Shown: positions 18,431-22,362, counted from the first letter of the stretch. The stretch is DNA of 64,000 nucleotides from Thermoanaerobaculia bacterium (GCA_036271335.1 DATBAW010000600.1:5635-69634); one strand, 5' to 3'. The notes: generated by a model not told the origin, from the letters alone. Numbers and translations are program-made.

Positions 18431-18637
18431 CTAGTCGCACAGGCGCGGCGGGCAGGGGGTGCAGATCGCGGTGACGGAGCAGGCTTCCGTCGTCGCTCCG
18501 GCCACGGCCCGGAGCTCGTCCTCGCTGACCTCGATCATCGCCGCCGGATGGGACGGCAGGCTCGCGCGCTCGGCAGGGTTCAGGCTCAGGAAGTAGTCCT
18601 CGTCGCGGAACGCACGGGCCAGATCGATCTTCTTCAT
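18431..18637 (-). CDS. lanA: Class II lanthipeptide precursor (LanA), mersacidin/beta-peptide-type leader
   Basis: 68 aa from the ATG at 18637, preceded by AAGGAGA. Sequence: MKKIDLARAFRDEDYFLSLNPAERASLPSHPAAMIEVSEDELRAVAGA / TTEACSVTAICTPCPPRLCD. Leader ends in ELxxxxGA. The Ser/Thr/Cys-rich core has 5 Ser/Thr and 4 Cys. Lies 57 bp downstream of lanM on the same strand. Confidence 0.8.
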   Translation of the reverse strand: MKKIDLARAFRDEDYFLSLNPAERASLPSHPAAMIEVSEDELRAVAGATTEACSVTAICTPCPPRLCD

Positions 18638-18694
18638 CGGGTTCTCCTTCTCTGCAAAACGGCGCGGGATCATCCCGCGCCGGTAACACCGTCT

Positions 18695-21600
18695 CTAGGG
18701 GTTGGGTGGGGCCAGGTGGAGCACGGACGGGACGCGCCCGGGCGACGCCAGGCGCAGCAGGCCGTAGCCGATGCCGGCGAGCCCCAGCATCAGCCCGGGC
18801 ATTTCGCCACGGCCGGGGACTCCGCAGCGCCAGCCATACTCGTGGAAACTGCCCAGGATGCTCCCCGCCAGGAGGCCGGCGCGGTCGGCCAAGCCCGGCG
18901 TGCCCAGAAGCTCCGCCGCCAGGGTGAGGACCTCCAGGTTGCCGAGGTCGCCGTGGCACAGGGAATGCCCCTTGCCGAAGCCGCCGGCGAGGGTGGCGGC
19001 GAGCGAGGTCTCGAGGTCGTCCCGCATCGCGGCGCCGTCCAGGAAGCGCAGGCTGTCCAGGCGGCCGAGGGCGATCCCCGGCGCGCCATGGCACCAGGCG
19101 CACATGGTGTGCTCCTCGACCGGCGCGCCGTTGCGCAGGTCGGCCCAGCCGCTGCCCGGGGAGTAGAGGGAACGCTCGTACTCCAGCGCCTCCAGGGCGG
19201 CCTGGCGGAAGCGATCGTCGTCCGTCGCCGCGGCCAGCTGGAGGAGGGCCCAGGAGATTCCCCCCGCGCCGTGGGAAAAGCCGCCCAGGGGCTGCGGCCC
19301 GGCCAGATCGAGGACCCAGCCGAGCCCGCGCTCCATGCGTTGGGCCCGCGCCAGGAGCCGCTCGCCGCAGCGGACGGCGAGAGCCAGGGAGGGACCGGAC
19401 GGCCGCAGGGCATGGAGGCCGAGGAGAGGGACGAGGCAGCCGGCGGCGCCGCCGACGACGTCGGAGTACTCGTCGGCGTCGATCTGCGGCCCCAGCGTCG
19501 CGGCGATCCGCTCGGCCGCGTCGAGGAGGGATTCGTCCTGCCAGAGGGCTCCCAGATGCGTGAGCGTGTAGACGATGCCCCCCCATCCCGAGAAACCGCC
19601 GATCGAGGGCACGAGGCTGGCGCCGTGGGTGATCTGGGCCCGCAGGGTGACGGTGGCGGCGCGGGCGAGACGGGTGAACCGGGCCTCGCCGGACACCGCG
19701 CCGAGCTGGGCGAGAAAGAGCGCGATCCCCGAGATCCCCAGGTAGAGGTCCGGACCGGCCAGCGCCAGCACGCAGGGGTTCGGGCCTTCCTGGAACTTCT
19801 GGGCGAACCAGAAGGCGCCCTCGCCACGGCGGAAGGCGAGCTCGTCGAGCCGCTCCCCCACCGCCAGCGCCGCGTTCAGCAGCTCGTGGCGCGAGGGGAT
19901 CGCGCCGGTCTCGCGCAGGACGTGGCGCTCCACCGGCTTCGGGCGGCCGCTCATCGCCTGGAGCGAGTTGGCGACGATCCAGGCCTGGCGGGCGATCTCG
20001 GCCTCGTCGAACCCGCGGAGGCGCGCGTGGACCTGATCGAGAGAGGTGGCCGAGAGGAACCCTTCGATCCTCTCGCCGTCGCTCGTCCACACGTCCCGCG
20101 AGGCCGGCAGGGTGGTGAACATGGGGATGTCCCCCCGTTGCAGGTCGCGGTGCTCGGCGGCCACCAGCCGCTCCAGCGCGGGGGTCTCCGGCACCGCCGC
20201 CCAGAGGAGGTCGAGGTGGCGGTCGCGGTCGACGGCGTCGCCCAGGACGTAGGGGTGCTGCCCCTCGAACGCCAGGTTGGAATAGGCGATGGTCTTGCGC
20301 ACCAGAAACCGGATCGGCGCCCCGGCGAAGGCGCTCAAGGGGCCGTCGGCGGCGAGCAGCTCGGCGCGATGGCCGGCGAGGAGACGGGCCATGCGCAGGA
20401 ACCCCTGGACGATCTCCCCGGTGTAGGCGGAGAGATCGACGACCGCGCCGTCGAGGGTCGGGCGGTGCTCGCCGACGGGGATGGCGACGGCCTCGCGGGA
20501 GAAGCGCATCTGGTCGGTCCCCGCGCCCTCGATCTGCAACATCGGCTGGGGGAGCACCTGACCGTCCGTCGCTGCCAGGCCGGAGAAATCGATCCCCGCC
20601 TGCCCCGGCCGTGCCCCCCAATCCGCCGTCGGCAGCAGGCCGATGCGCAGAACGGTGTCCGGGAGGGGGGGCTCCTCGTCCGTCTCGGCGCGCCCCAGGG
20701 TTTCGTCCAGGGGGTGCAGCAGCGCTTCGAGGTCGACGAGGACCGGGTGCTCCCCCACCGCGATCAGGTTCTCGTGGTGCATGTCGATGGCCGACAGGGC
20801 GTAGAGGATCGCGAGGTAGCCACCCTGGCGCTGATAGAAGCGCTCGACCTCCCCGGCGTTCGCGCAGGGGCCCGCCGCCACGCGTTCGACCCAGCCGTGC
20901 TCGTCGCCGGCCTCCAGGACCCGCAGCCGGCGGAAGGCCGGCTCGAACCCGCGGGCGCCGGTCCACTCCAGAAGATCCTGGAACGCCTGGTCGACCTTCA
21001 GGGACCGCGGCTTGTAGACCAGCCCGAGCCCGGAATCGAAGCGCAGCAGCGCCACCGACCGGCCCCCCCGATGGGAATCCCCCTGGCCGGTGTGGAGCTC
21101 GGTCAGGATTCCCAGCTCGCGGCCGGGCGAGAAGAGCGCGCGCAGCCCTGCCGCGTCGGCGGCCAGATGGCCGAGGATCTCCAGGCTGTACTCCACCCAG
21201 CGGGTGGTGGTCTCGACGATCTGCCGCGCCAGCACCGGGTACTGGCGCAGGAGGCCGAGCGCGACGTCCGGATCTCGCAGCGACTCGACGAAGCTCTGGA
21301 ACCTCTCCTCCGGCGTCTCCCCCGCCAGCTGTCCGGCGTGGCCCGCCAGGTGGAGCTCCAGGACCAGGGTGCGGGTGAGGAGGTGGATGATCGCAAGCGG
21401 CAGGTTGGCCGCCAGGAGCGGGCCGGCGGTCGCCGGATCGAAGGGGAGCGAATCGAGGCGCCGCGCCATCTCGTCCAGGCCGGCGGTCAGATCCGAGTAG
21501 GCCGTGTCGAGGAGGGGGCGGACCACCTCCAGGAAACGGGCCTGGGAGCTGCCGTGGAGCTTGGACGGGAGGGGGAAGGTCGCGGCCGGCCGGCCCGTCC

Positions 21601-21958
21601 AGGCGCGCTCCAATTGGACGAGCCAGGCCGCGCGCTCCTCCACCCGCGCCGCGACGGCTTCCTGGGGCTCGCCGAGGAGCCCGTGGAGGTCGTGGATCCC
21701 GATCCCCTCCCGCTCCAGGCGTCGCGCGAAGAAACCGTCCTGCCCGAAGGGGTTCTGCGCCTGCCACCGGGCGAGGCGGCGCGTCGCCCGCTCAGCGTCC
21801 CCTGGAAGAGGCGAGCTGGCGCCGGCGGTGCGCAGGGCGGCCGCCCGTTCGCTCAGGGTGAGGGCCTTCGACCATTCGGAGAGGGAGAAAGGGTTGGGCT
21901 CGGCCAAAGCTGGGCTCCTTTGAGGTTCGTCCGTATCCTGTCCTGAGCGCGATGACAT
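18695..21958 (-). CDS. lanM: Class II lanthipeptide synthetase LanM (dehydratase plus LanC-like cyclase)
   Basis: N-terminal LanM dehydratase signatures: GDSHRGGRSVALLRFDSGLGLVYKPRSL and IDMHHENLIAVGEHPVLVDLE. C-terminal LanC motifs: GFSHGAGGI, WCHGAPGIALGRL and SLCHGDLGNLEVL (zinc ligands Cys/Cys/His). The ATG at 21958 is preferred over the TTG at 22030 given by the track. Confidence 0.92.
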   Translation of the reverse strand: MSSRSGQDTDEPQRSPALAEPNPFSLSEWSKALTLSERAAALRTAGASSPLPGDAERATRRLARWQAQNPFGQDGFFARRLEREGIGIHDLHGLLGEPQEAVAARVEERAAWLVQLERAWTGRPAATFPLPSKLHGSSQARFLEVVRPLLDTAYSDLTAGLDEMARRLDSLPFDPATAGPLLAANLPLAIIHLLTRTLVLELHLAGHAGQLAGETPEERFQSFVESLRDPDVALGLLRQYPVLARQIVETTTRWVEYSLEILGHLAADAAGLRALFSPGRELGILTELHTGQGDSHRGGRSVALLRFDSGLGLVYKPRSLKVDQAFQDLLEWTGARGFEPAFRRLRVLEAGDEHGWVERVAAGPCANAGEVERFYQRQGGYLAILYALSAIDMHHENLIAVGEHPVLVDLEALLHPLDETLGRAETDEEPPLPDTVLRIGLLPTADWGARPGQAGIDFSGLAATDGQVLPQPMLQIEGAGTDQMRFSREAVAIPVGEHRPTLDGAVVDLSAYTGEIVQGFLRMARLLAGHRAELLAADGPLSAFAGAPIRFLVRKTIAYSNLAFEGQHPYVLGDAVDRDRHLDLLWAAVPETPALERLVAAEHRDLQRGDIPMFTTLPASRDVWTSDGERIEGFLSATSLDQVHARLRGFDEAEIARQAWIVANSLQAMSGRPKPVERHVLRETGAIPSRHELLNAALAVGERLDELAFRRGEGAFWFAQKFQEGPNPCVLALAGPDLYLGISGIALFLAQLGAVSGEARFTRLARAATVTLRAQITHGASLVPSIGGFSGWGGIVYTLTHLGALWQDESLLDAAERIAATLGPQIDADEYSDVVGGAAGCLVPLLGLHALRPSGPSLALAVRCGERLLARAQRMERGLGWVLDLAGPQPLGGFSHGAGGISWALLQLAAATDDDRFRQAALEALEYERSLYSPGSGWADLRNGAPVEEHTMCAWCHGAPGIALGRLDSLRFLDGAAMRDDLETSLAATLAGGFGKGHSLCHGDLGNLEVLTLAAELLGTPGLADRAGLLAGSILGSFHEYGWRCGVPGRGEMPGLMLGLAGIGYGLLRLASPGRVPSVLHLAPPNP

Positions 21959-22362
21959 CCAGACCCCCGGAACGAAGGGGAAGGGGCTGTTCCCCCTTAC
22001 TCCCCGCTCGCCTGCAATATTCTTAGCCAATTCTTTGTATACACCTATTCATCACGGCGGATATTAGCATGTTCTCTATGGAAGGATAGGGGAGGAGTTG
22101 CGGGGGCGCTGGCCCGGGAGGGGTTCGCTCACGTCCGCGAGAACGGGAGTGGCCGGCGGGTCTCGGTGTACCAGAAGGCCGGCACCGGCGATCCGCCACC
22201 GTGAGCCGGAGCGGCGTCGCGAAACATACGCGGCCGTTCGTGGAACTTCTGGCCGCGGCGTGCTCCATTCACCCCCGAGCGTGGTGAATTCGAGAATCGT
22301 TCTGATGAACTGGCGACGCCGCGCGATGCATCGAGCCGCGGCTTGGAGATTCCGAGAATCGG

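Follow-up and report, generated by a model that had tools for sequence, protein, structure and literature searches.

The lichenicidin and mersacidin clusters of Firmicutes carry LanT (an exporter of the ATP-binding cassette, or ABC, type with a C39 peptidase domain), LanP or an extracellular protease, LanFEG and regulators; the mersacidin cluster also has MrsD. The prochlorosins of marine picocyanobacteria represent another class II arrangement, in a diderm cell: the synthetase ProcM works with unlinked precursors and an unlinked transporter, and the leaders are of the double-glycine type. The subject of this paper is a far barer locus, a lanM gene followed by a lanA gene, in a 64,000-nt stretch of DNA from a Thermoanaerobaculia bacterium (GCA_036271335.1, DATBAW010000600.1:5635-69634; this whole stretch is "the window" in what follows). 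The closest characterised systems are tha and the (ThaA/ThaM/ThaO and TheA/TheM/TheO), class II clusters of Thermoanaerobaculia metagenome-assembled genomes (MAGs) that were characterised in Nature in 2026 (PMC13083261). ThaM forms two DL-lanthionine rings, and a GMC oxidoreductase installs a thiazole where the peptide reads Gly-Gly-Cys. Besides genes for ABC-transporter proteins, the tha cluster has one for a C39 peptidase, and its product inhibits neutrophil elastase at 2.6 µM (PMC13083261).

What does a locus reduced to a synthetase gene and a precursor gene represent? The explanation that we favour, at a probability of roughly 0.7, is that the pair is a functional, self-contained bicistronic cassette that gives rise to a compact class II lanthipeptide in soil Thermoanaerobaculia (Acidobacteriota), with its leader removed by a C39-type peptidase encoded elsewhere. 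The argument is built on the integrity of the two genes, on the recurrence of precisely this pair in unrelated surroundings, and on the pattern of selection.

The synthetase gene lies on the minus strand at 18695..21907 (stop codon 18697-18695). Its longest open reading frame (ORF) is 18695-22030 (-), in which an alternative ATG at 21958 would specify 1087 residues, the length given in the initial annotation. Translation most likely starts instead at a TTG at 21907 and yields 1070 residues, the ATG form probably being an over-extension, because the ribosome-binding site (RBS) AAAGGAG at 21915..21921 (-), 7 nt upstream of the TTG, and the TTG itself are kept in at least 17 orthologous loci (with an AAGGAG-like element at equal distance), and because a database protein that is 99% identical to this LanM, P0050, starts at the TTG position and is 1070 residues long. 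Both expected domains reside in one polypeptide (DUF4135, PF13575, 7e-120; LANC_like, PF05147, 1e-62), and the match to NCBIfam TIGR03897 scores 891.9 bits against a cutoff of 304. The dehydratase signatures and the zinc triad that had been noted along with the longer version are all in the translation: LVYKPRSL, DMHHENLIAVGEHPVLVDLE (that is, DMHHENLI...VLVDLE), GFSHGAGG, WCHGAPG and LCHGDLG align with their counterparts in LicM2 of lichenicidin (PDB 6st5), namely the ATP-binding Lys, the catalytic loop D-x-H-x-E-N with DLE, and the zinc ligands of the cyclase. LicM2 is also the nearest solved structure (398 bits, residues 182-1085, nearly full length). The kinase-like dehydratase domain and the LanC-type cyclase domain are intact, zinc ligands included, and the enzyme is predicted to be catalytically competent.

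The precursor gene follows on the same strand after a spacer of exactly 57 nt (lanM stop to lanA ATG). It occupies 18431..18637 (-), with its ATG at 18637 and its stop at 18433-18431, and encodes 68 residues; its RBS, AAGGAGA at 18643..18649 (-), 5 nt upstream of the ATG, is kept in all aligned loci. The spacing, the length of the precursor and its RBS are as the initial annotation gave them, and the sequence features noted there are present to a degree well past chance. The product passes the profile of the mersacidin/lichenicidin precursor family, TIGR03898, with 54.6 bits against a cutoff of 23.5 (over residues 18-60 of an 80-residue call; that longer call, from an ATG at 18673, was discarded, its start lying within a hairpin and being without an RBS). 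The leader comprises residues 1-48 (18637-18494, minus strand) and ends ...ELRAVAGA, which presents a double-glycine-type site, E-8 L-7 V-4 G-2 A-1, followed by T-T-E..., as the predicted point of cleavage. The predicted core, TTEACSVTAICTPCPPRLCD (18493-18434, minus strand), has 20 residues, five of them Ser or Thr and four Cys, and ends in Cys-Asp, not in Cys. Throughout the family the leader is almost invariant (RAFRDEDY, SLP.HPAA, ELRAVAG(A/G)): L42 is invariant in the family alignment, and R43, A44, V45 and G47 are conserved at 90% or more. The cores conform to the pattern T-T-(E/D)-A-C-(S/T)-x-(S/T)-(G/A)-x-C-(S/T)-P-C-x4-C-x, in which the four Cys are invariant and the Ser/Thr positions conserved.

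The suggestion that the locus is a good candidate for a new product stands in part and was put too strongly. A full-text search of the literature for CSPCPP, CTPCPP, AICSPC and AICTPC returned no relevant lanthipeptide paper, and the core family T-T-E-A-C...A-I-C-T-P-C-P-P-x-x-C has yet to be characterised, to judge by such literature as can be searched. The precursor family, on the other hand, already carries a name in annotation pipelines, and the tha and the clusters of the same bacterial class have been characterised.

The two genes sit within well-marked boundaries, in the order RBS-TTG-lanM, conserved palindrome, RBS-lanA, terminator hairpin. The palindrome, CGGCGCGGGA-TGA-TCCCGCGCCG, is at 18660..18682 (-) within the 57-nt spacer. 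It is kept in 14 loci, with 88.6% of cells paired as against at most 52% with slid partners, and it folds with a minimum free energy (MFE) of -24.3 kcal/mol (z -2.6). Structured RNA did not gain from a test of covariation: there is one compensatory pair, and 82 of 500 shuffles score as high, which is not significant. An RNA hairpin and a DNA operator or protein-binding site are both possible readings of this sequence. Directly 3' of lanA, at 18380..18414 (-), a terminator-like hairpin (stem GGCTCCGGGTGGGCC / GGTCCATCCGGAGCT) forms the downstream edge of the cassette; the copy in the window (MFE -46.5 kcal/mol, z -4.4) is without a T tract. A homologous stem, GGGTGGGC-loop-GCCCACCC, is found 3' of lanA in nearly all related loci, mostly followed by TTTT. 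Comparison of the orthologous loci detected no conserved sequence upstream of the lanM RBS.

How general is this arrangement? LanA homologues fall into 49 clusters of 59-100% identity, all from metagenomes or MAGs, and every named one is from Thermoanaerobaculia. A scan of representative genomes added ten Thermoanaerobaculia/Acidobacteriota species, with LanM identities of up to 79%. The loci taken for comparison (designated L001 and so on below) came from seven precursor look-ups, ten representative-genome loci and thirteen metagenome loci, and represent about 25 contigs; in all of these contigs lanM is immediately upstream of lanA. When the flanking ORFs were clustered all against all, 15 distinct contexts were found to have lanM and lanA alone in common, and none of the other genes of the window clustered with any ORF of a related locus. 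Genes that could have passed for conserved accessory functions (ECH and thiolase genes, and a PadR regulator with a duplicated FtsX permease) recur just in one syntenic subclade and were dismissed as such.

Nor does an exporter, a protease or an immunity function turn up in the vicinity. Among the predicted genes of the window (called by third-position GC and scanned against Pfam and NCBIfam) there is no C39 peptidase, no LanT or other ABC_membrane exporter, no subtilisin (LanP), no LanFEG or LanI and no LanD flavoprotein, so that the claim, made at the outset, that no transporter, protease or immunity gene is linked to the pair extends to the whole 64 kb; and the locus is minimal, as was also said, in having one lanM and one lanA, a search of the window with the precursor-family profile having found no second lanA. 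The related loci have no C39 peptidase or ABC_membrane exporter within 10 kb of an orthologous cassette. One divergently transcribed ABC exporter, of a paralogous group described below (L021), served as a tblastn query for a linked exporter that might have been missed: no counterpart emerged in the vicinity of an orthologous cassette, and in the window it matched only the two Opp ATPase domains. The missing accessory genes are not an accident of this window, because some 25 contigs with unrelated flanks have this bare pair too. Absences of this kind are also common, since about one-third of lanthipeptide loci are without a protease gene within 10 kb (PMC8960859).

Selection bears on whether the pair does anything. 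In comparisons with orthologues, the ratio of non-synonymous to synonymous substitution (dN/dS) lies near 0.3 in lanM and between 0.16 and 0.67 in lanA, values that point to purifying selection on both genes. Within lanA, non-synonymous differences per site amount to 0.082 in the leader and 0.249 in the core, roughly a three-fold difference at equal synonymous divergence. A fixed leader joined to a core that diversifies on a fixed scaffold of Cys, Ser and Thr is the usual pattern of peptides that are synthesised ribosomally and then modified post-translationally (RiPPs), and argues against a decaying remnant.

Resemblances to the known systems are partial, and they differ from case to case. 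With tha and the, the locus shares the bacterial class, a small Cys-rich core and a leader superfamily, MKK..RAW/F(R/K)DE(E/D)Y..SL...ERA..P..PA...(G/A)G(G/A), and over the first 399 residues of ThaM its LanM shows 45% identity. The core, in contrast, is unrelated: LanA identity is 37-41%, mostly in the leader. The window has no GMC_oxred match (ThaO/TheO) and no Cys directly past the GG/GA site; a thiazole is not expected in the product because the GMC oxidoreductase is absent from the window. The C39 peptidase and ABC-transporter genes of tha are likewise without nearby counterparts here. To lichenicidin and mersacidin the locus is linked by LicM2 as nearest structure and by the TIGR03898 assignment of its precursor, and to mersacidin in particular by a predicted product of 20 residues with four Cys and a conserved acidic residue in a small ring. 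It differs in gene order (lanM, then lanA), in its diderm host and in that the LanT, LanP, LanFEG and MrsD-type genes of those clusters are not found in the window. The lipid II-binding motif of mersacidin is TxTxEC (PMC7268733); unlike mersacidin-like lipid II binders, the window has a core without that motif and, in 64 kb, no LanD for a C-terminal aminovinyl-cysteine. A canonical cluster of lanA, lanM, lanT and immunity genes is accordingly not what one sees.

The prochlorosin system offers a further parallel. Here, too, no peptidase or exporter gene stands beside the synthetase gene, and here, too, a genome may hold several precursors with a conserved leader and diverse cores. The arrangement is nonetheless a different one: every precursor has its own LanM directly in front of it, whereas in the prochlorosin system one promiscuous enzyme serves many scattered precursors; moreover, the leader is of the TIGR03898 type and not of the Nif11/NHLP type, and the scaffold of the core is conserved across orthologues. 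A further comparison concerns ring formation: the template Dhx-Dhx-Xxx-Xxx-Cys directs formation of an LL-methyllanthionine (LL-MeLan) A ring by substrate control (PMC11385697). The core of the window starts T-T-E-A-C and fits this template, from which the corresponding stereochemistry may be predicted; the remainder of the core is unrelated to that of the template peptide, shorter, acidic, and provided with a Pro-rich C-terminal module.

If the preferred explanation, an active cassette with unlinked maturation, is correct, the sequence of events can be sketched as follows. By established LanM chemistry, the synthetase would bind the leader, phosphorylate Ser and Thr residues of the core and eliminate the phosphate, and then add Cys thiols so as to close up to four thioether rings within 20 residues. 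T-T-E-A-C would become an LL-methyllanthionine A ring, as the template suggests (PMC11385697), and the S/T-A-I-C-S/T-P-C-P-P-x-x-C module would provide the C-terminal rings. Cleavage of the leader after Gly-Ala would fall to a peptidase of the C39 type, free-standing or forming the N-terminal domain of an ABC exporter, and an exporter bearing such a domain would work with a TolC-type channel in a diderm cell. The peptidase would be encoded elsewhere in the genome and would probably be shared with paralogous lanM-lanA cassettes that have the same leader. A dedicated immunity gene may be unneeded because the outer membrane would shield the producer. That an ordinary unlinked C39 peptidase or peptidase-containing ABC transporter (PCAT), rather than non-canonical machinery, is the likeliest route of maturation is suggested by the leader, since it keeps a nearly invariant double-glycine-type site. 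As to activity, the product could be directed against cell walls of competitors or could inhibit a protease, the latter by analogy with the ThaA product.

Paralogous loci bear on how far these cassettes spread within single genomes. A LanM search retrieved 2603 proteins at <1e-50; in a second tier of these (52-61% identity), Thermoanaerobaculia again make up the greater part. A 3.64-Mb contig that has an orthologous cassette (L014) also holds two paralogous lanM genes with precursors of the same leader type: one lanM is followed by a 70-residue precursor, the other by three precursors of 70-73 residues, and neither paralogous locus has a peptidase or exporter gene nearby. Another paralogue (L040) is, once more, a bare lanM-lanA pair. 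Common to the paralogous precursors are the leader and, at the C-terminus, the module (S/T)-A-I-C-(S/T)-P-C-P-P-x-x-C. Two candidate exporters beside paralogous loci were set aside. A 565-residue ABC protein encoded directly after lanA in L039 belongs to the cyclic-peptide exporter family TIGR01194, an ambiguous assignment because its gene adjoins genes for a nonribosomal peptide synthetase (NRPS); the divergently transcribed 638-residue ABC exporter of L021, L033 and L035, considered as a LanT, is generic, MsbA-like and without a C39 domain. In L038 (1-4000, 13070-13901), lanM is accompanied by three tandem precursors, in a genome that has an orthologous cassette as well. About 6 kb upstream of that lanM are genes for a 1110-residue protein without a domain match, a 67-residue peptide and a Lant_dehydr_C protein, which may constitute another RiPP locus. 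One might extrapolate from all this to a lineage-wide modular system, in which each genome keeps several bare lanM-lanA(n) cassettes, dispersed over accessory regions beside toxin-antitoxin (TA) modules, all with one leader and all served by one unlinked C39 peptidase or exporter, and in which the T-T-E-A-C ring and the A-I-C-S/T-P-C-P-P-x-x-C module define a new structural family whose role may be other than antibiotic (for example, protease inhibition, as with ThaA). This is a tentative proposal, and we would bet against rather than for it in its entirety.

Could the bareness of the locus mean instead that maturation, or the purpose of the product, is out of the ordinary: that general proteases trim the peptide or that it remains associated with the cell, its role being to inhibit a protease, to signal or to act as an envelope factor rather than as an antibiotic? 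The lack of any linked exporter, protease or immunity gene in some 25 contexts and in the paralogous cassettes is what one would then expect; the absence of the mersacidin lipid II motif from the core, the net negative charge of the LanA core and the inhibition of neutrophil elastase by the related tha product (PMC13083261) also fit. What makes this an unlikely explanation is the leader, in which the nearly invariant residues E-8, L-7, V-4, G-2 and A/G-1 spell out a C39 processing signature family-wide, to which one can add the C39 peptidase of the tha cluster, a core that diversifies faster than its leader in the manner typical of antagonistic RiPPs, and the frequency with which the proteases of lanthipeptides are unlinked (PMC8960859). 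A product that acts only together with the peptides of paralogous cassettes, after the fashion of the alpha/beta two-component lantibiotics, is harder still to defend. It draws on the three same-leader cassettes of the 3.64-Mb contig of one relative, one of them with three precursors, and on LicM2, the beta-peptide enzyme of lichenicidin, as nearest solved synthetase; the latter match does not discriminate, however, because there is no solved structure of LicM1. The 64 kb of the window hold a single cassette with a single lanA, the paralogues lie megabases apart rather than together, and the motif of the mersacidin-like alpha peptide is seen in none of them.

That the pair is a decaying remnant, left over from a larger lantibiotic cluster after loss of its transport and immunity genes and no longer giving a product, we consider highly improbable, although the accessory genes are indeed absent, TA modules and repeats adjoin the cassette, and several related copies of lanM are frameshifted. 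In the window neither ORF is disrupted and no catalytic motif is missing; the start codons, both RBSs, the 57-nt spacing and the terminator have been kept across many lineages; and purifying selection acts on both genes, with strong constraint on the leader.

Several observations tell against the preferred explanation of a functional cassette with unlinked C39 processing. The constraint on lanM, at a dN/dS of about 0.3, is only moderate. Related lanM genes are frameshifted in L001, L005 and L020 (perhaps through assembly error). In the paralogue group that diverges most (L021, L033 and L035; ~6740-9944) lanM is in two overlapping frames, split at about residue 430-440; because the break is shared by three separate contigs, whose samples differ, a true frameshift or a split enzyme is probable. 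Some copies of the cassette may not be functional. A search for a sigma-70-like promoter detected none. Five Ser/Thr set against four Cys do not allow the pattern of rings to be derived from the sequence of the core, and some paralogous precursors have fewer Ser/Thr past the first Cys. TxTxEC occurs in no member of the LanA family, this core included. Finally, the unlinked C39 peptidase or PCAT is a plausible prediction from the leader site, while the gene scans span the 64-kb window and about 10 kb around the related loci.

The surroundings of the cassette in the window are as the initial annotation had described them; the scans recovered every neighbour that it had listed. Upstream of lanM and divergent from it is tag (Adenine_glyco, 22368-23075). 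Downstream of lanA come a hypothetical gene whose product has a signal-like N-terminus (17443-18027), a PIN/VapC gene with a small antitoxin ORF (vapBC, 16556-17204) and a gene for a PilT-like ATPase (15216-16502); two FG-GAP proteins, one CBS protein and one NHL-repeat protein are also encoded around the cassette. Two Opp-type ABC ATPase genes lie at about 1.9-3.5 kb. The fusion of an ABC-2-type permease with a C-terminal M1 peptidase (1220 residues, 37458-41120, minus strand) is the sole ABC-2 permease of the window; its gene is some 15 kb from the cassette, is without an adjacent ABC ATPase gene (the next gene, 36446-37264, has no family match) and is not conserved beside the cassette in related loci. 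A TolC-like outer-membrane efflux protein (OEP) is encoded at 1-1648 (-) by a gene that exits the left edge of the window, and the type of operon to which it belongs (resistance-nodulation-division, MacAB or type I/PCAT secretion) lies past that edge. Sensor kinases and a TonB-dependent receptor are encoded further out. The TolC-like and TonB-receptor genes, together with the assignment of all named relatives to Thermoanaerobaculia/Acidobacteriota, bear out the diderm host proposed earlier.

TA genes lie no more than about 2.5 kb from the cassette, both in the window and in L003, L005, L037 and L040. TA modules are enriched near class II clusters (PMC12715929), and their proximity suggests that the cassette is located in the accessory genome, not that the two are functionally linked. 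What was at first described as REP/MITE-like repeats downstream of lanA turns out to be two inverted copies of the Acido-Lenti-1 RNA motif (Rfam RF01687), at 18096-18141 (-) and 18247-18292 (+), scoring 48.0 and 49.2 bits (gathering score 37); their arms form a 48-nt inverted repeat that is 98% complementary. A second inverted pair is at 48174-48291. The opposite orientation of the paired copies suggests a repeat element rather than a lone small-RNA gene. Acido-Lenti-1 is best described as a dispersed genomic element that flanks the cassette and is not part of the locus, because in relatives it is located elsewhere and not next to lanA (L011 and L023 have single copies); being a known Rfam motif that does not adjoin lanA in relatives, it was also dropped as a MITE that might mobilise the cassette.

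Mobility of another sort may be glimpsed in two related loci. L007 and L023 share neighbours (DUF1569, patatin and a haem-binding PDZ protein), and a 3.5-kb block that begins about 100 nt upstream of lanM and ends with the lanA stop is differently placed in the two. They differ as two adjacent blocks in swapped order, and either the cassette or its neighbour may have moved. About 10 kb downstream of the cassette in L023, at 18260-18624, a gene that exits the end of the locus encodes a fusion of PqqD (RiPP recognition) with a GMC-family oxidoreductase; the GMC family is that of the thiazole-making enzymes of the tha and the clusters. Within 10 kb of lanM in L001, L013, L015, L020, L037, L038 and L039 there are genes for large permeases of duplicated MacB_PCD/FtsX architecture that lack an adjacent ATPase gene; in the first four of these loci they are accompanied by the gene of a PadR-type regulator.

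The window has other contents that may be recorded briefly. A large NRPS gene at 52433-64000 (-), some 30 kb from lanM, exits the right edge; it has four matches to condensation domains and three each to adenylation and carrier-protein domains, ends in a thioesterase, and gives no sign of a link to lanM. Two tandem genes for proteins of about 973 residues each, 30493-33414 (+) and 33479-36397 (+), have no Pfam or NCBIfam match; the tRNA-Trp that ARAGORN calls inside the second of them, at 34363-34451 (-), is probably a false positive, because Rfam gives no confirmation. At 8287-9012 (+) and 9151-9810 (+) are tandem genes for small proteins, each consisting solely of the substrate-binding (N-terminal) domain of Lon protease. 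A short ORF at 26726-27001 (-) corresponds to the middle part only of an aldo/keto reductase (profile positions 139-205 of 291) and is probably a gene fragment; full-length aldo/keto reductase genes are near the cassette in L007 and L021.

What is gained by looking closely at so small a locus? It is a real two-gene unit, and a fairly ordinary one, in that the bare pair recurs in soil Acidobacteria of the class Thermoanaerobaculia; it leaves what is known of lanthipeptide biosynthesis unchanged. The initial annotation is correct apart from the LanM start and the nature of the repeats, and its inference of unlinked leader removal and export is a reasonable one. The analysis adds that the bare pair is a conserved and bounded cassette across that class, sometimes with several to a genome, and that its canonical double-glycine site leads one to expect a C39 peptidase that is unlinked and shared. 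Should the cassette prove active, about 3.5 kb of DNA with two genes would suffice to specify a new 20-residue, multi-ring scaffold from an uncultivated soil phylum, and would make a cheap and convenient target for heterologous expression. The family itself supplies, for work on structure and activity, cores that vary naturally while their Cys/Ser/Thr scaffold stays fixed, and its pattern would allow one to ask whether diderm producers routinely separate the modification of their lanthipeptides from processing and export, and by way of which peptidase.

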